This document shows, piece by piece, positions 3,809-59,320 of a stretch of DNA of 59,507 nt. Within the stretch, counting starts at the first letter, position 1, and each line of letters starts with the position of its first letter. Location of the stretch: the NCBI GenBank assembly GCA_050012075.1, contig JBEKHW010000006.1, positions 1 through 59,507 on the forward strand, written 5' to 3'. Source of the stretch: Candidatus Omnitrophota bacterium (GTDB lineage Bacteria; Omnitrophota; Gorgyraeia; Gygaellales; Profunditerraquicolaceae). The notes beneath the pieces are model-generated. The model was not told the origin of the DNA. It searched no databases and worked only from the letters and a program-made list of their open reading frames with translations. Both the position numbers and the translations under genes were made by a program.

Positions 3809-4882
3809 CTAATTGAAATACCAGGTGAGGCCTGCCAAGAGACCATTCATATAGGTATGGCTGGTTGGCTCAACAACACCAAGCCCTCCGCCTATTGGTA
3901 TGATGTCGGACATTTTAATCCACCAAAAGGTAAAATAAGGAGTGAAATCAAGGGAGATATTTTGCAGTATATAATATTTTATGGGCAACTTAACCTCTAC
4001 TCCCCATACATTGTGCAGCTTAAACTTAAACCCGTCTAAGGTCTCCTTCATCTTTGGCGAATAGGCATACATCAATTCTACGTCTATGCCGGTAGAAAGC
4101 TTAGGGATAAATTCATAGTTAACTCCTGCCCCTCCACCAAAATATATCCAGTGGTATATCTCCTGGCTATCTTGTTTATCTCCTATGTCCGTAGTTATAA
4201 TCTTGTTTTGTCCCCTGACCCATATTCTCCTTCCAGCATCCAGATAACCAAAGAGTTCTCCGTGTTTGCCGTTTAAATCCTGGGAGGCGCCTAATTTAAT
4301 ACCATAACGGTGTATCCTGGCAAGTTCTTCATCAAACTTTACAGGGATGCCGCTCTGAGTTTGGCCGTCATAGGTAATCATATCTGCGGCGCGCCGATAG
4401 TAAAGTTCAACAAATGGCCTTCCTAGCGCCCATTCATAATAATCAGGGCTTCTATATCCGGCATTAACGTAATAGCCGTGCAACGTACCATAGTCTCTAT
4501 CCAAAATATCGCCACTACCGTCAGTGTCGAATTCCTTATAGTGGAGGTGGCTTAAATTGTAACCTCCGGAAACATAAAATCCCGTCCTCTGGATGCCGGT
4601 ATCTGTTGGAGGCGGGCGCATTGCTTTTTCTTTAGGTTTTGTTTTCGCGGGAGGGGGAATTTCTTTTTCGGGCGCTCTTTGCGCCAATGCCTGATTCATC
4701 TTAACATCCCGAAGGGCAGGATTATAAGAAGGCTGCATCTGGCTTGGAACGACGGCCCGCTGTGATTCCAGCCGGGTTAACGTCATGGAAACGATAAGGT
4801 CGCGGGAATCTGCGAGAGCGATAGCAGGCAGAAAAAAGAGCAGTGATGCCAAACACAAAATAATATTCTTCGTTTTATGCAT
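3809..4882 (-). CDS. Outer-membrane beta-barrel protein with Pro-rich N-terminal linker
   Basis: Signal peptide (ALA-D), amphipathic aromatic-rich strands, C-terminal ...GLTWYFN beta-signal. Confidence 0.7.
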   Translation of the reverse strand: MHKTKNIILCLASLLFFLPAIALADSRDLIVSMTLTRLESQRAVVPSQMQPSYNPALRDVKMNQALAQRAPEKEIPPPAKTKPKEKAMRPPPTDTGIQRTGFYVSGGYNLSHLHYKEFDTDGSGDILDRDYGTLHGYYVNAGYRSPDYYEWALGRPFVELYYRRAADMITYDGQTQSGIPVKFDEELARIHRYGIKLGASQDLNGKHGELFGYLDAGRRIWVRGQNKIITTDIGDKQDSQEIYHWIYFGGGAGVNYEFIPKLSTGIDVELMYAYSPKMKETLDGFKFKLHNVWGVEVKLPIKYYILQNISLDFTPYFTFWWIKMSDIIPIGGGLGVVEPTSHTYMNGLLAGLTWYFN

Positions 4883-4952
4883 TGAGATTAATATTATACT
4901 ATATTATCTGGATTGTCAATATTTTTATAACTCGCGTCCGCCTATTGCTTAT

Positions 4953-5804
4953 CTATAGGTCTTTAAAACCAATGGGCTCTATTCTCTCTTCCGTCATTTT
5001 TTTCTTAAGTGCCGGGGAAAGCAGAACCGCCAATTCTTGCTGCCAGTCATACCGCCAATGTTTATAGCTAGGCAATGCGTCTTCTTGGGCGGCCGGGTGA
5101 CAAATAAATTCCGTTGTCGCCAGGGGTATTTCCTTTAGGATGGCCGTAACCGCCTCCAAATCTAGGTGTCCGCTCCTCAATATCCCGGCGCTATAATCAT
5201 TGTATTTTAATCCTGTGCTACGGATATATTTCTTATTGAAGGCGCTAAGAGACTTTAATAAAAGTACTCCCGGCCAACGAAACAATGTATTTTTATCGAA
5301 TAAATGATTTCTTATGGGATATTCATTCGCCAGCCTTATTGCTTTAATGCCATATTTATCTGCCAGGGATATAAACTGCCGAAATAATGGCGGCAGCATA
5401 TGGAGATGGCGGTGGCTATTTAAAAATACGGGTTTAATCCCCGTATCCAATATTTTTTCGATCTGCGCCTTGGCTTCCGATTCTATGTTTTTTAAGGCCT
5501 CTTTTCTTACATACAAAGTTGAAATGAATCCGGGTAAGCTATCTAAAAAACTCCCGCTTTTGCCGACGATAAAAGGTACCTTCTCTGGTCCCAACACCGG
5601 CCTCTCCTCTAAAAAAGTCAAATGCGCCCCTATTTCTAAACCGGTGCTTTTAGCAATCTTTGCCGCATTTTCAAACGAGCCTCCACATGCTGATAATGAT
5701 GCGCACCTTACTATGCCGGCTTTAAATGCTTTCGCTATTCCTGCATTTATCCCCTCGGCTAAACCAAAATCGTCTGCTGTAATAATAAGCCTTTTACTGA
5801 ACAT
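4953..5804 (-). CDS. ChbG/HpnK (YdjC) family carbohydrate deacetylase
   Basis: LIITADDFG, GAHL, NSHRHLH and EFICHP motifs. Confidence 0.9.
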   Translation of the reverse strand: MFSKRLIITADDFGLAEGINAGIAKAFKAGIVRCASLSACGGSFENAAKIAKSTGLEIGAHLTFLEERPVLGPEKVPFIVGKSGSFLDSLPGFISTLYVRKEALKNIESEAKAQIEKILDTGIKPVFLNSHRHLHMLPPLFRQFISLADKYGIKAIRLANEYPIRNHLFDKNTLFRWPGVLLLKSLSAFNKKYIRSTGLKYNDYSAGILRSGHLDLEAVTAILKEIPLATTEFICHPAAQEDALPSYKHWRYDWQQELAVLLSPALKKKMTEERIEPIGFKDL

Positions 5805-53761: not shown

Positions 53762-55099
53762 ATGGAGCTATTCGAAGAAAAAAAGATAGATAATAAAAAT
53801 CTGCCGCTGGCAGTGCGCATGCGGCCGGTCTCCTTAGAAGAGTTTGTCGGCCAAGAGCATCTATTGGGCAAGGGTAAACTCCTGCGCCGTGCCATTGAAG
53901 CAGACCGGTTAAGCTCGCTTATCCTCTACGGGCCTCCGGGCACAGGTAAAACGTCTCTTGCCTGGTGCGTAGCCAATATTACCAAGTCATACTACGCGGC
54001 AATAAACGCCACCACATCCAATGTCGAAGAGTTGCGTAAGGTTATTGCCCAGGCAAAGCTGCGGGCCGTAAACAGCGGTCAAAAAACAACCCTTTTTATC
54101 GACGAGATACATCGTTTCAATAAAGCGCAGCAGGATGTGTTGTTGCCTGACGTGGAAGAGGGAAATCCTGTTCTTATCGGTGCTACCGTCCACAATCCTT
54201 TTTTCTCGATCGCCTCGCCCCTTGTTTCGCGCTCGCTAGTCTGCGAGTTAAAACCCCTTAAAGAGGGAGAGGTCCTGCGGATTCTTGAGCGCGCTTTAAA
54301 GGATAAAGAGAGAGGCCTCGGGAATATAAAAATCGAAACAGAAAAAAAGGCGCTTTCGTTCTTAAGCAAGATATGCGAAGGGGATGCCAGGCGCGCATTA
54401 AGTGCCCTGGAAATAGGAGCACTGACCACGCCTAAATCCAAGGACGGCGTCGTTAATATTACTCTGGAGGTTGCTTCCGAGTCCATCCAGAAGAAGGCTA
54501 TCTTGTACGACAAGGATGAAGACGCTCATTATGACAGCGCCTCGGCGTTCATTAAGTCCATGCGTGGCTCAGACCCGGACGCAGCTATTTATTGGATGGC
54601 CAAGATGCTTTCTGCCGGAGAGGATCACCGTTTTATTGCCCGCAGGATTTGTATCCTGGCCGCAGAGGATGTGGGTAATGCCGACCCCTTGGCGCTTGTG
54701 TTAGCTAATGCGGCAATGCAGATTTCAGAATTTGTAGGCATGCCTGAGGCGCGCATTCCTCTGGCGCAGGCAACCCTGTATGTCTCCTGTGCCCCCAAAT
54801 CCAACGCCAGTTATCTGGCAGTAGAAAAGGCCTACCAGGATATCGAGAATGAAAAAATACAGGAGGTACCCGACCACCTTAAAGACGCTTCCTACCCCGG
54901 AGCCCAAACCTTAGGCCGCGGCGCGGGGTACAAATACGCCCACGATTACGAAGGCCATTATGTCAAACAGAAATACACAAGAAGGAAAGTAAAATATTAT
55001 GAGCCTACGGAAATAGGCTATGAAGCCAAGATAAAACAGCGCCTGGAAAAACTGCGCAAAGAAAACAACCCGCTTAAGGGCGCAAGAGAGAAAACCTAA
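53762..55099 (+). CDS. rarA: Replication-associated recombination protein A (MgsA/RarA)
   Basis: PLAVRMRP, GPPGTGKT, DEIHRFNKAQQD, KSMRGSDPDAA. Confidence 0.96.
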   Translation: MELFEEKKIDNKNLPLAVRMRPVSLEEFVGQEHLLGKGKLLRRAIEADRLSSLILYGPPGTGKTSLAWCVANITKSYYAAINATTSNVEELRKVIAQAKLRAVNSGQKTTLFIDEIHRFNKAQQDVLLPDVEEGNPVLIGATVHNPFFSIASPLVSRSLVCELKPLKEGEVLRILERALKDKERGLGNIKIETEKKALSFLSKICEGDARRALSALEIGALTTPKSKDGVVNITLEVASESIQKKAILYDKDEDAHYDSASAFIKSMRGSDPDAAIYWMAKMLSAGEDHRFIARRICILAAEDVGNADPLALVLANAAMQISEFVGMPEARIPLAQATLYVSCAPKSNASYLAVEKAYQDIENEKIQEVPDHLKDASYPGAQTLGRGAGYKYAHDYEGHYVKQKYTRRKVKYYEPTEIGYEAKIKQRLEKLRKENNPLKGAREKT

Positions 55100-58000
55100 A
55101 TGATTATATTTTTTGAAATACTTATGGCTATCGGTGGACTAATGGTTCTTTACGCCGTCGCCGGTATCTTTTTCCCTACGGGGGCACTTCGGAAAGCAAA
55201 ACCTACAAAGAGCGGCGGTTTTTTTGGCCCAGGAAAAGCAAGGATTGACCCCAGAGAGCAAAAAGTTCAGCAGCTGGAAGGTAAAATTGCCGCTGGAGAG
55301 GCGGAGCTGGTTAAAATAAGAGGCGACAATAGCAGGATGGAAGGGGAATTGGCGCTCATTAAGGAACGCGAAACATCTTTACAGGAGGAGCTTAGGCGCA
55401 GGGAAGAATGGGTTGCCAAATCAGAGAGTTCAGTAGAGAAAGTAAAAGAAGAAAATCTCTCTTTAAAACAGAATTATCTGGCCAAAGAGAAAGAATTACA
55501 GGAAGAGTACAGCAAAAAAGTAAGCCTTGAACAAGAGGTGCGCAAATTACAGGAGCGCATAACCGCGCTTGAGAATGAAGTAAAGGAAAAGGTCGATAAA
55601 ACCGAAGCCCAAAAGCACCTTTTGGAAAAAGCAGCAGCCGAAATAAAAACAAATTTAACCAGTATCACAGAACACAAGAAGCGCGAGGCGCAGAGTGAAT
55701 GGGTGCCTAAGGGCGATTTCAATAAACTTAACGAGGAATATTCGGAACTGGAGAAAGAGCTGGAACGTAACGAAGAGAAGCTGCAATCTTTTGCTAAGGA
55801 GATTGCCCAATTAAAGAGTCAGCTTGTCCAGAAAGAATTCTGGGAAAAGAGCGCTTCTCAGAAAGCGGCTATTGAGTCCGATGAAGAAATCCCTTCAGGG
55901 ATTCCTAAAGAGAAAGAAGTCGAACTCCAGCCTCAGGCAGAAGCCCCAGTTCCCGAACCGCAGGCGCCCGTAGAGGAAAAGGCAATAGAGGAGCCCCCGA
56001 AAGAAGAAAAAATAGAAGAGAAAACAGAAGAGGAAGAACCCGCGCCTGCCCCGGCAGCGGAAAAGGCGGAAAAGAAGGAAAAAGGAGAACGGCCCAAGCC
56101 GCCGATAGAGATGGGCCATATACGCAATATAGGTATCATGGCGCATATCGATGCCGGCAAGACCACCCTTTCTGAACGTATACTTTTCTATACGGGGAAA
56201 ACCCACAAGATAGGAGAGGTTCATGAGGGCGCAGCGCAGATGGATTGGATGAAGCAGGAAAGGGAGCGGGGCATAACCATTACAGCTGCGGCTACTACTT
56301 GTTTCTGGAAAGGCTACAGGATTAATCTGATTGATACGCCGGGCCATGTGGATTTTACCGTGGAGGTAGAAAGGAGCCTGCGCGTCCTAGACGGTGCAGT
56401 GGCTGTGTTCTGCGCTGTCGGAGGCGTTGAGCCGCAGTCAGAGACCGTCTGGCATCAGTCAAATAAATACAACGTCCCAAAAATCGCCTTTATAAACAAG
56501 ATGGACAGGACCGGCGCGGATTTCTTTGCGGTAGTCAAGGGCATTGAAGATATCCTCGCGGCCAATGCGGTTTGTTTGGAGATCCCTATTGGCCAGGAGG
56601 AGAATTTTAAAGGGGTCATAGACCTCCTGGAGATGAAGGCAAATTTTTACGAAGATGAATCCCAGGGTAAAGAGATACGCGTGGAAGAAATTCCTGCCGA
56701 ATTCCTGGATCAGGCAAAGAAATACCGGCATAATATGATTGAAAAGGCGGCTTCGCAAGACGAAGGCCTTACGAAAAAATACCTGGAGGAAGAGTCTGCA
56801 ATTACACAGGAGGAGTTGATACAGGCATTGCGCCGGGCTACTATCGCCAATAAAATCGTGCCTGTTCTCTGCGGCGCAGCCCTGAAAAATAAAGGAGTAC
56901 AAAAGCTCCTGGATGCCGTAACTCTTTATCTTCCTTCGCCGGCGGATCTACCTGCCGTAAAAGGTCATTCTCCTGACGATGAAAATGTCATTGTGGAAAG
57001 AAAAGCGGATACGCAGGAACCTTTTGCAGGCCTTGCTTTCAAGGTGCAGGCAGATCCCCATATGGGTAAGCTTGTTTATGCCAGGGTCTACTCCGGCGTT
57101 CTTGAAACAGGCACGTATGTCCTTAATTCCAGTAAAAATAAAAAAGAGCGCGTAGGCCGTATTGTGCTTATGCATGCTAACCAGAGGGAAAATATAGAGA
57201 ACGCTTTTGCGGGAGATATCATTGCCTTAATCGGGCTGAATAATACGGTAACAGGGCATACGCTTTGCGACCCTGATGAGCCGGTTGTTTTAGAGGCGAT
57301 GCGTTTTCCGACGCCGGTAGTTTCTTTAAGCGTCTCACCAAAAAGCCGCAGTGACCAGGATAAGCTTGGAAAGGCCCTGGGCCGGCTTACGGAGGAGGAT
57401 CCCACATTCGTGGTTAATTCTGACGAGGAGACAAAGGAGACCATTCTTACCGGCATGGGCGAATTACACCTTGAGATTATCGTGGACAGGCTTAAGACCG
57501 AGTTTGGCGTTGAAGCGATTGTGGGTCAGCCAAAGGTCGCTTTCCGGGAGACGATTTTACAATCCTGCGGCGCAGAAGGTAAATATATCCGACAGACAGG
57601 CGGCCGCGGCCAGTATGGCCATGTAGTGATTGAAATCGCACCTGCCAAGCCCGGAGAAGGGTTTCAGTTTACCAACAGTATCAAGGGAGGCGCTATCCCC
57701 GCCTCTTTTATTCCCTCGATTGAGAAAGGCATTATCGAAGCGATGGATAAAGGAGTGTTCGCGGGGTATCCTGTGGTAGATACAAAGGTCGATCTTGTTG
57801 ACGGCTCTTTCCATGAAGTAGATTCATCGGAGTTGGCCTTTAAGATTGCCGGGAGCATTGCTTTTAAAGAGGCATTTTTGAAGGCGCAGCCGGTTTTACT
57901 GGAGCCATATATGTCCCTTGTGGTAACTACTCCCGAAGAGTTCGTAAACAGTATCGTCGGATATATCTGTTCGCGCCGCGGAAAAATTATCAATATCGAT

Positions 58001-58198
58001 GCCAAGGCAAAACAAAAGGAGATCTCTGCCGAGGTCCCGCTTTCTGAGATGTTCGGGTATACCACCAATATCCGCTCCCTAAGTAGCGGCAGGGCAGCTG
58101 CCTCGATGGAATTTAACAAATACCTGCAGGTGCCGCAAGAGATAGCCCAGAAGATCGTAGAAGAAAAGAAAGCCAGGGAAGCAAAAAAACGCTCTTGA
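55100..58198 (+). CDS. fusA: Elongation factor G with a 337-aa N-terminal extension (TM helix, coiled coil, acidic/Pro linker)
   Basis: [52 protein letters not shown] after Met338; N-terminal hydrophobic helix. Confidence 0.9.
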
Positions 58199-58232: not shown

Positions 58233-58889
58233 ATGATTATTACAGAGCAGAAACCATTTCAGCAGATCCTAGAATACCTTAAGGGTTATAATAAGATATT
58301 CCTTGTGGGCTGCGGGGAGTGCGCGACGACCTGTAAGAGCGGCAGCGAAACAGAGTTGCTTGCGATAAAACAGCTTTTGGAAGGAGAAGGTAAGCAGGTG
58401 CTGGGTATGTGTATACCTTCCGCGCCCTGTGTGGCAAGCCAGATAAAAACAGAGCTGGCAAAAAACTCCAAGCTGTTACGCCAGGCAGAAGCGGTTCTGG
58501 TTTTGGCATGCGGCCTGGGAGTTCAGTCAGTCAAGGATAACGATAGGATGAATTTAGCGGTGTTGCCGGCGTTAAATACTATATGCGGGGCCGTGATGGA
58601 TGCTAGGGGTGATTTCTACGAGAAATGCTCTATGTGCGGGGAGTGCGTCTTAGCTGTCACGGGGGGCATCTGTCCCGTAACAATTTGTCCAAAGGGGCTG
58701 TTAAACGGCCCTTGCGGCGGCATGGATAAAGGTAAATGCGAGGTAGATAAAGAAAAGGATTGTGCCTGGGTTCTTATTTATAAGGAGTTTGAAAAGAAAG
58801 CGGGGCAGGCCGCCTTAAAAGAAGTCCTCCCGCCAAGAGACCACAAGAAAGCAGGGAGGCCGCATAGATTTATCACGGCACCAAAATAA
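58233..58889 (+). CDS. Methylenetetrahydrofolate reductase C-terminal-domain (MetV-like) Cys-rich protein
   Basis: GCGECATTC, ACGLGVQ, CSMCGEC...CPKGLLNGPCGG...CEVD...CAW. Confidence 0.85.
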   Translation: MIITEQKPFQQILEYLKGYNKIFLVGCGECATTCKSGSETELLAIKQLLEGEGKQVLGMCIPSAPCVASQIKTELAKNSKLLRQAEAVLVLACGLGVQSVKDNDRMNLAVLPALNTICGAVMDARGDFYEKCSMCGECVLAVTGGICPVTICPKGLLNGPCGGMDKGKCEVDKEKDCAWVLIYKEFEKKAGQAALKEVLPPRDHKKAGRPHRFITAPK

Positions 58890-58891
58890 AT

Positions 58892-59320
58892 ATGGACCCG
58901 TTGCCTTATAGCGAAAAAGTGATGGACCATTTTACCAACCCGCGCAATGTCGGAGAGATCGCTGATGCCAGCGGTATCGGTACAGTGGGTAACCCCATAT
59001 GCGGCGACGTAATGAAGATGTTCCTTAAGATAGAAAACGGCATAATTGTAGATGCGAAATTCAAAACTTTCGGCTGCGGCGCGGCTGTGGCGACTAGCTC
59101 CATGGTTACAGAGATGGTTAAAGGTAAAACCATAGAGGAGGCACTCCGGATTTCTAATAAAGCAGTTGCCGAGGCCCTAGGAGGGCTGCCCCCTATAAAA
59201 ATGCACTGTTCTGTCCTGGCTGAAGAGGCGCTGCGCTCTGCCCTTGCGGATTATTACCGCAAACAGGGTAAAGAGGTGCCGTTTAAGGAGAAGCCCGCAG
59301 GACATGAACACAGCCATTAA
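58892..59320 (+). CDS. nifU: Fe-S cluster scaffold, NifU/IscU-like
   Basis: YSEKVMDHF.NPRNVG, NPICGD, FGCG, KMHCS. Confidence 0.92.
   Translation: MDPLPYSEKVMDHFTNPRNVGEIADASGIGTVGNPICGDVMKMFLKIENGIIVDAKFKTFGCGAAVATSSMVTEMVKGKTIEEALRISNKAVAEALGGLPPIKMHCSVLAEEALRSALADYYRKQGKEVPFKEKPAGHEHSH

Follow-up and report, generated by a model that had tools for sequence, protein, structure and literature searches.

Elongation factor G (EF-G) is the textbook freely diffusing factor, which visits the ribosome once per codon, and the EF-G1/EF-G2 pairs of spirochaetes, P. aeruginosa and mitochondria, which divide translocation and recycling between their members, are soluble too. A different layout is that of bitopic proteins such as RNase Y and ZipA, in which an N-terminal transmembrane (TM) helix precedes a coiled-coil or charged region and, in ZipA, a Pro/Gln-rich linker leads to a cytoplasmic globular domain. 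Here, we describe a gene predicted to join these two themes by placing a complete EF-G on an N-terminal membrane anchor and coiled-coil stalk. It lies in a stretch of 59,507 nucleotides from Candidatus Omnitrophota bacterium (GCA_050012075.1, JBEKHW010000006.1, positions 1 to 59,507, forward strand; hereafter the window), which belongs to a genome of 1.72 Mb in 46 contigs that is 93% complete. We found no description of a membrane-anchored EF-G in the main texts of open-access papers and preprints. The predicted architecture is, in our assessment, well established, and a function can be proposed for it.

A first-pass annotation, made from the bare letters of the window, had read the gene as one uninterrupted open reading frame (ORF) of 1032 residues (55100-58198, forward strand), with its ATG directly behind the stop codon of rarA, lying outside the rpsL-rpsG-fusA-tuf operon, and ending in a complete EF-G of about 695 residues from Met338 with intact G motifs, switch I sequence RGITI and domain IV loops. 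Our analysis bears this out: the frame is single and unbroken, its ATG abuts the TAA of a gene identified by Pfam as rarA/MgsA (...cctaa atg...), and the canonical copy lies away from it on contig C3, flanked by rpsG and tuf. The proposed anatomy also stands, with slightly revised sizes for two segments: the linker is longer (96 residues instead of about 80) and the coiled coil shorter (about 190 instead of about 200).

The C-terminal part matches the Pfam domains GTP_EFTU (the G domain with its G' insert, 341-613), domain II (EF-G_D2/GTP_EFTU_D2, 641-724), EFG_III (736-809), EFG_IV (811-930) and EFG_C (932-1018), all above their cut-offs, and AlphaFold2 (AF2) folds residues 338-1032 with a predicted local distance difference test score (pLDDT) of mostly 70-93. 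Against TIGR00484, the EF-G equivalog model, it scores 1047.9 bits (cut-off 659.4), with residues 337-1024 aligned to positions 6-690 of 691; a six-frame search of the genome gave 1049.7 bits. It falls below the cut-offs of the EF-G2-like models NF009377 (522.9 vs 890) and NF058620 (486.6 vs 1000) and of the Tet ribosomal protection model NF012153 (381.3 vs 775). Scores against solved chains run from 872.8 bits for 1dar and about 870 for 2rdo/4v7d to 592 for mitochondrial EF-G1, 500 for RRF2mt and 404 for the EF-G homologue 1wdt, the matched PDB entries including ones named 'Elongation factor G 1', 'Elongation factor G 2', mitochondrial EF-G and 'Ribosome-releasing factor 2'. In an alignment of 62 full-length fused proteins, on which the start, charge, linker and motif counts given below are also based, AHIDAGKTT (348-356), RGITI (390-394), DTPGH (412-416, with the catalytic His416), NKMD (466-469), Q832, GGRGQYGH (834-841), H905 and VDSS (907-910, within HEVDSS) are all invariant; residue 833 varies (T in 6 and S in 11 of 17 sequences). 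At the tips of the domain IV loops, which touch the decoding centre, the residues G834-H841, H905 and V907-E911 are invariant in 17 of 17 tethered-type sequences and are shared by 22-24 of 24 canonical ones. We conclude that the C-terminal 695 residues are, by every sequence criterion applied, a member of the EF-G family and not an EF-G2, Tet or RF3 protein, and that this EF-G is predicted to be orthodox and catalytically intact. The idea of a GTPase-dead docking domain was rejected on account of the intact motifs.

Chance is far from accounting for the single frame, which is seen again in dozens of genomes that were assembled independently. When an orthologue was counted at an identity of at least 65% to the tethered-type EF-G, 27 of 41 related genomes screened possessed one; 23 of these are near full length, among which 21 are open frames of 1009-1137 residues, one (G018) is cut by a contig end and one (G039) is unfused. 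A pattern scan for the stalk motif, with one genome per species, matched 189 stretches, 95 of them encoding relatives, from which 80 loci were kept; the two sets share genomes, and the counts are thus not independent. Anchor, stalk and the G1 motif of EF-G lie in one frame at 65 of the 80 loci, 62 of them complete, and one further locus is cut at the start of EF-G. From one genus to another, the EF-G parts share 68-86% identity. Long EF-G homologues with an N-terminal hydrophobic helix, for which a search had been advised, are accordingly present as complete single frames at 62 of 80 loci. On a broader scale, a profile of the N-terminal 340 residues found the anchor-stalk module in 105 of 401 sampled Omnitrophota genomes. 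All 105 are labelled as belonging to the class of the window or to a closer group, and within its family 59 of 60 genomes gave a match. Open frames of at least 990 residues occur in 62 of the 105 genomes, and two shorter hits are fused genes cut by contig ends, so that the fusion is present in at least 64 of the 105.

Sequence coverage at the linker/EF-G junction was also checked. A 4340-base contig of run X1 covers the entire gene with 0 differences, though X1 may be the source of the assembly and hence not independent; a 245-base contig from an independent pond run, X2, corresponds to 55949-56193 with 2 differences and bridges the junction. The first-pass annotation held that relatives with separate ORFs would speak against a single chain. 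Such split forms do exist, yet 62 of 80 loci keep one ORF, none of the 80 loci and the unfused case has both parts as adjacent separate genes, and the split forms look secondary. A few copies are damaged: in G005 (L116:1387-4512, forward strand), a TAG interrupts the frame some 66 residues inside the G domain, and in G022 (L010:244-620), part of the sequence is masked and the frame shifts between the anchor and the stalk. For both, a sequencing or masking effect and real decay are possible. In sum, the gene is predicted to encode a real single-chain membrane-tethered EF-G of Candidatus Omnitrophota.

The alignment of the fused proteins further bears on where translation of the EF-G part begins. 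The column of Met338 holds Met in the window's protein alone (1/62) and Leu in 57 of 62, which argues against a conserved internal start. Start-type codons occupy this column in six of the 62 genes (one ATG, five TTG) and none of the six is preceded by a word like a Shine-Dalgarno (SD) sequence, in agreement with the earlier statement that no well-spaced SD precedes Met338; by comparison, an SD-like word stands before 25 of the 62 N-terminal starts. A Met anywhere within 25 residues upstream of RNIG is found in just 6 of the 62. The junction residues P-x-x-x-L-E-K-x-RNIGI make up the N-terminal peptide of EF-G itself, which the canonical copies also have (MRKIPLEKIRNIGI...), and the linker was therefore joined practically at the EF-G start codon. 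A scenario in which only the product from Met338 is made is, judging by these alignments, unlikely.

An AF2 model built on the 62 homologues (mean pLDDT 73.9) resolves the chain into a helix (2-24), a disordered stretch (25-51), a long helix (52-199), a four-residue break, a second helix (204-241), renewed disorder (242-337, pLDDT 31-40) and the EF-G fold from 338. The 19-residue Kyte-Doolittle mean is 2.40 in the window's N-terminal helix and at least 2.0 at 79 of the 80 related loci, the exception being masked. Lys and Arg together number a median of 0 and a maximum of 1 before this helix, as against a median of 5 and a minimum of 2 in the 20 residues after it, and net charge is greater on its C side in 52 of the 62 homologues. 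According to the positive-inside rule, the basic side of a membrane helix faces the cytoplasm. Because of this charge bias, and also because EF-G needs GTP and ribosomes, the stalk and EF-G would be cytoplasmic, and we infer an uncleaved N-out/C-in signal anchor in the inner membrane; that no basic n-region is present points indirectly to the anchor being uncleaved. The charge distribution places the coiled coil on the cytoplasmic side rather than in the extracytoplasmic position that the first reading had named as fatal to it, and an exported EF-G was rejected, both for this bias and for EF-G's dependence on GTP and ribosomes.

Residues 48-198 show a hydrophobic periodicity with a power of 2.5 at 3.5 residues vs 0.04 at 3.6, reached in 0 of 500 shuffles, which is the signature of a heptad coiled coil; no such heptad periodicity was detected in the linker by the same analysis. 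Two copies of residues 48-245 were predicted to pair in parallel and in register (same-residue contacts 150:150, 157:157), with a homodimer score of 0.45 against 0.00 for the best of three controls; the runs share at least 79% of contacts and the partner pLDDT is at least 77. The same mark was attained by 20 of the 30 proteins whose solved structures are pairs of one chain, and by 1 of the 23 whose structures are single chains. The modelling thus supports a parallel, in-register homodimer. At a helix rise of about 0.148 nm per residue, the two stalk helices would be about 22 and 6 nm long. Around the break between them lies a motif in which K204, F207, L210, N211, E213, Y214, L217, E218 and K219 are invariant in the 62 homologues and S199, E200, W201 and P203 nearly so, and such strong conservation appears unusual for a mere spacer. 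The linker ranges from 59 to 188 residues (median 93.5), with 26% acidic residues and 15% Pro.

The protein had been described as a second EF-G of its genome. A canonical fusA was indeed located, but the genome has three EF-G-like genes and not two: the tethered one, a 698-residue copy between rpsG and tuf (contig C3; L002:1465-3558, reverse strand; 1027.1 bits on TIGR00484) and a third paralogue of 652 residues. Identity between the tethered domain and the operon copy is 54% (366/684), and both are about as close to the solved Thermus-type and E. coli-type EF-Gs as to each other. The operon copy scores 867.7 bits with 1dar-type and about 825 bits with 2rdo/4v7d-type chains; mitochondrial EF-G1, RRF2mt and 1wdt are not among its listed matches. 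In a quick maximum-likelihood tree (IQ-TREE, LG+G4) of 50 Omnitrophota sequences, comprising 17 tethered-type, 24 canonical and 9 third-paralogue proteins, each type forms one clade with a support of 100 in the Shimodaira-Hasegawa-like approximate likelihood-ratio test (SH-aLRT), and branch lengths are alike in the tethered and canonical clades. Within Omnitrophota, the check proposed at the outset thereby recovers the tethered type as a clade separate from the located canonical copy. The two clades differ by 21 positions fixed differently, mostly conservatively and seven of them in domain III. The tethered EF-G is, by all indications, accessory to the soluble EF-G of the str operon.

Two further features of the paralogues deserve mention. 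In this genus, the canonical EF-G has GGHGQYGH at a site where GGRGQYGH is found in 22 of 24 canonical and 17 of 17 tethered-type proteins; by this residue of the domain IV loop, the tethered copy is more orthodox than the canonical copy of its own genome. The third paralogue (contig C9:25470-27389, reverse strand; locus L003:1483-3438, reverse strand) has the G1 motif GHAQSGKTT, and in 9 of 9 orthologues examined Tyr (DxPGY) takes the place of the catalytic His of G3, a sign that this EF-G may be GTPase-deficient. It falls below the cut-offs of the EF-G2 models; on that of Bacteroides EF-G2 its score is 503.8 vs a cut-off of 1000, and it is not a member of that family.

Turning to the anchor-stalk module, residues 1-340 match no Pfam or NCBIfam family, and a PDB profile search with the module returned generic coiled coils alone, with a best E-value of 0.056. 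Its matches in the protein Atlas are clusters of hypothetical proteins (0.91-0.93), none of which names it. A profile search of 1.84 billion representatives gave 303 matches at E-values of at most 0.001, mostly fragments of 60-460 residues, with one representative of 1040 residues and no new architecture; long representatives are few because the fused proteins collapse into few 50% clusters. A homology search with residues 1-340 retrieved at least 18 long proteins, all with EF-G Pfam domains, which bear the public names 'elongation factor G' or 'small GTP-binding protein'.

The module also occurs by itself. Complete stand-alone anchor-stalk ORFs of 248-412 residues are found at 14 of the 80 loci, and at 12 of these the gene order is pheT, rarA, anchor-stalk-linker, secreted cyclophilin, UvrD-like helicase, MTHFR_C-like Cys-rich gene and IscU (L029, L045, L054, L056, L060, L062, L065, L066, L069, L073, L078 and L085, with the gene at about 3950-5240). 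The nearest fused loci have the identical order with EF-G still attached, and the stand-alone form thus represents a deletion of the EF-G part alone. Both forms exist within one GTDB genus, and in the tree three genomes with the stand-alone form have canonical EF-Gs that lie nested next to a fused member of this genus, which points to the loss of the EF-G part as the derived condition. In four of five stand-alone genomes searched, which may be incomplete, only a canonical-type EF-G was present (57-59% identity), and the fifth gave no EF-G hit; neither the tethered type, which is accordingly taken as accessory, nor, with its own query, the third paralogue was found in these genomes. The median ratio of nonsynonymous to synonymous substitution rates (dN/dS) is 0.157 for stand-alone modules (11 usable of 55 pairs) vs 0.114 for fused ones (42 usable of 1830), most pairs being saturated. 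The module, mostly a single copy per genome, is by this measure apparently kept under purifying selection after the deletion of EF-G. The converse case is that of G039 (L115:2826-4916, forward strand), which has an unfused orthologue of 697 residues, 68% identical and with a normal N-terminus, while another genus of the same family carries the fusion. The G039 gene lies downstream of an unrelated Cys-rich ORF, with no anchor-stalk nearby.

Beyond these loci, other Omnitrophota families have proteins of about 220-250 residues with the anchor, the coiled coil and both Trp motifs (EW... and SEW[VI]xK..[FY]); they are 23-32% identical to the module and have another gene context, and we accept them as homologues because both Trp motifs are present. 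At L109-L114 and L118, anchor-stalk proteins of about 220-350 residues have a large multi-pass membrane protein (motif FVHDDxVFIQNNP) on one side and an aminotransferase-like gene on the other, a setting unlike that of the rarA locus. The anchor-stalk proteins thus form an autonomous Omnitrophota protein family, new here, rather than a mere tether, and the anchor-stalk would be the older component, to which an EF-G paralogue was fused. Alignment A1 omitted L010 (masked, frame change), L017 (contig end), L024 (interrupted) and L025 (masked X); alignment A3 or the stand-alone set omitted L079 and L085 (masked) and L033, L058, L072 and L084 (3'-truncated); and the stand-alone dN/dS set omitted L071 and L098 (other gene context).

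The features of the gene and its immediate neighbours are collected in Table 1. A rarA match stands immediately 5' at 57 of the 80 related loci, and in many relatives the locus is flanked by pheT and rarA on the left and by the MTHFR_C-like Cys-rich gene and IscU on the right.

Table 1. Coordinates in the window of the tethered EF-G gene, its predicted segments and its neighbours.
Feature	Coordinates	Strand	Basis
Upstream rarA/mgsA (AAA+ ATPase)	53762..55099	+	Pfam MgsA_C, 7.2e-67; conserved left neighbour
Whole gene, predicted 1032-residue membrane-tethered EF-G, including TGA stop	55100..58198	+	Single uninterrupted ORF; same frame in relatives
Transmembrane signal-anchor helix, residues 2-24, predicted N-out/C-in	55103..55171	+	Kyte-Doolittle, AF2, charge bias
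Basic disordered juxtamembrane segment, residues 25-51	55172..55252	+	AF2 pLDDT <50 for 25-50; Lys/Arg-rich in alignments
Coiled-coil segment 1, residues 52-199, with invariant W104 (RRxEWVAKSE)	55253..55696	+	AF2 helix, periodicity, dimer contacts 50-214
Best-conserved stalk motif, residues 199-222; helix break 200-203 just before Pro203	55694..55765	+	62-sequence alignment, AF2
Coiled-coil segment 2, residues 204-241	55709..55822	+	AF2 helix; 3.5-residue periodicity, reached by 0/500 shuffles
Acidic Pro/Glu/Lys/Ala-rich disordered linker, residues 242-337	55823..56110	+	AF2 pLDDT 31-40; without periodicity
Complete EF-G, residues 338-1032	56111..58195	+	Pfam, TIGR00484, 1dar match, invariant motifs
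Cys-rich protein with MTHFR C-terminal domain	58233..58889	+	DUF5981, 5.7e-32; conserved right-hand neighbour
IscU/NifU-N scaffold	58892..59320	+	1.2e-50; conserved right-hand neighbour

We propose, with a probability of roughly 0.6, that the protein is a membrane-tethered accessory translocase or recycling factor. It would be anchored in the inner membrane as a parallel dimer, with each chain carrying its EF-G on a disordered acidic arm of 60-190 residues, such that two heads per dimer would reach some 30-60 nm into the cytoplasm. There, they would catalyse ordinary GTP-dependent translocation and/or RRF-assisted recycling of ribosomes near the membrane. The clients might be ribosomes held by nascent membrane or secreted chains, possibly those of the very long membrane-associated proteins of this phylum. 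A role at membrane-bound ribosomes had also been suggested by the first-pass annotation, and it stays a suggestion here. The analysis establishes the architecture and how it is conserved, the catalytic motifs as intact, the gene as accessory and the module as autonomous; topology, dimerization, reach and the role at membrane-proximal ribosomes are all inferred. Most Omnitrophota cells measure about 0.2 µm (PMC10066038). For 916 long Omnitrophota proteins, a 2026 preprint gives TM helices or signal peptides for 94% of them and a predicted TM anchor with a cytoplasmic bulk for 46% (422/916) (bioRxiv 10.64898/2026.06.07.730766). In the genome studied here, contig C1 (reverse strand) has an open frame of at least 26,219 residues, a giant gene of the type reported for Omnitrophota, whose 5' end is cut off where the contig stops, and contig C33 has an open frame of 4345 residues. 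A ribosome making a giant protein would linger at the membrane, and a link of this to the tethered EF-G is offered as an idea only.

Several points weigh against this proposal. A reach of 30-50 nm covers, by simple arithmetic, about 66-88% of a sphere of 100-nm radius, so that 'membrane-proximal specialisation' may be physically meaningless in such cells. EF-G must bind and release the ribosome in every cycle, which puts in question how efficiently it could cycle while tethered. The topology is drawn from hydropathy and charge alone, the predicted dimer concerns a generic coiled coil whose likeness to solved structures may drive the pairing, and both product and location are deduced here from the gene. 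Moreover, the fusion is dispensable in both directions, as seen in the EF-G-deleted subclade of one genus and in the unfused G039, and neither part seems strictly to need the other. Finally, nothing separates translocation from recycling or rescue.

Among the competing explanations, those that deny the tethered product fare worst. A misassembly, a missed stop or frameshift fusing two genes, or a decaying pseudogene might be suspected from the minority of interrupted copies, namely the TAG of G005 and the masked run and frame change of G022; the uninterrupted frame in dozens of independent assemblies, the independent run across the junction, the 68-86% identity of the EF-G part between genera and a stalk dN/dS of about 0.11 reduce the chance of this to almost nothing. 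It is very improbable, too, that a soluble EF-G, begun at or near Met338, is an additional or even the main product of the ORF, with the tethered form minor or non-functional. The window does have an ATG at codon 338, precisely where EF-G begins, and the unfused orthologue of G039 starts at the equivalent place, but the column has Met in 1 of 62 and a start-type codon in 6 of 62 genes, none with an SD-like word, a Met within 25 residues upstream of RNIG is found in only six, and the anchor and stalk of the fused genes are under purifying selection. A reserve of EF-G held at the membrane, to be released or activated by linker cleavage or a change of state such as host attachment or exit from dormancy, seems to us improbable. 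It would have a parallel in LepA/EF4 of E. coli, reported as membrane-stored, and would suit the accessory nature of the gene and its long, protease-accessible disordered linker; moreover, the free-living and attached states of an Omnitrophota epibiont are reported to differ in ribosome content (PMC10066038). Yet the linker has no conserved cleavage motif and varies freely in sequence and length (59-188 residues), the sole conserved junction residues (P334 and L338) belong to EF-G's N-terminal peptide, no protease gene is adjacent, and a rigid dimeric rod of 190 residues exceeds what sequestration needs.

The remaining two alternatives start from the anchor and stalk. In one of them, the module has a membrane function of its own, for example in organizing a membrane domain or a structure of cell division or of the envelope, and EF-G is a passenger that docks ribosomes or polysomes, serving as a ribosome anchor and not as a better translocase. 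The complete stand-alone ORFs at 14 of 80 loci, the relatives of about 220-250 residues with the two Trp motifs in other families, the purifying selection that persists after EF-G deletion (dN/dS of 0.157 vs 0.114 in the fused form), the prevailing single copy per genome and the strongly conserved stalk motif all argue for it. We nonetheless regard it as unlikely, if deserving of serious thought: EF-G keeps all its catalytic residues and evolves as slowly as the canonical form, which is unexpected of a domain that only docks, searches with the module (Pfam, PDB profile and Atlas) returned neither a known family nor a partner, and the neighbouring rarA, cyclophilin, UvrD-like helicase and IscU genes hint at no membrane machine. 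A bolder view, to which we give rather little credence, takes the anchor-stalk as an Omnitrophota-specific membrane scaffold for translation, whereby the inner membrane becomes a fixed 'factor pool', akin to a ribosomal stalk built into the membrane. With a pair of EF-G heads held out by flexible arms and a dimeric rod of about 30 nm, much or all of elongation, notably the hours-long synthesis of giant membrane-anchored proteins, would be served from the membrane, and the acidic tail left after EF-G loss would still recruit soluble translation GTPases. If true, this would be the first spatially hard-wired elongation in a bacterium.

Should the proposed tethered translocase or recycling factor, spread through a large part of a bacterial phylum, prove real, it would show that a fixed site can supply elongation or recycling. 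It would provide a natural system for studying the diffusion distance that translation factors need, the supply of membrane-bound ribosomes, and the organization of protein synthesis in ultra-small cells with few ribosomes and giant genes. In addition, the module defines a new Omnitrophota membrane protein family, with a TM helix and a two-tryptophan coiled coil, for which the fusion to EF-G is, in the Rosetta-stone sense, the sole functional clue so far. All the parts are suited to expression and assay by standard methods.

Compared with canonical EF-G (FusA, TIGR00484), the tethered protein has the same five domains, G motifs, catalytic His and domain IV loops. In contrast, the canonical form is without the 337-residue anchor, stalk and linker and belongs to the str operon, whereas the tethered gene lies beside rarA, and the tethered type constitutes a separate clade that is dispensable in some lineages. 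As with the EF-G1/EF-G2 pairs, there is more than one complete EF-G per genome, which suggests a division of labour; the tethered EF-G is set apart from these pairs by location rather than by sequence divergence. Han et al. are said to have described a GTPase-deficient EF-G2 of Bacteroides in EMBO J in 2023; that comparison concerns the third paralogue with its DxPGY, while the tethered EF-G keeps DTPGH. An N-terminal fusion on EF-G also has an artificial precedent in the engineered L9-EF-G chimera, listed for the ribosome entries 4wpo, 4wqf, 4wqu, 4wqy, 5hau and 6ucq of the PDB, where the EF-G part begins near chain residue 75-78. The chimera is tethered to a ribosomal protein and not to a membrane, and since it was solved on the ribosome, it indicates that an N-terminal fusion is compatible with ribosome binding. 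Finally, no sequence kinship of the module with RNase Y or ZipA was detected (Pfam, PDB profile), but the logic of the design is shared: an N-out/C-in anchor, an extended or flexible spacer and a cytoplasmic working domain, the cargo in this case being a translation GTPase.

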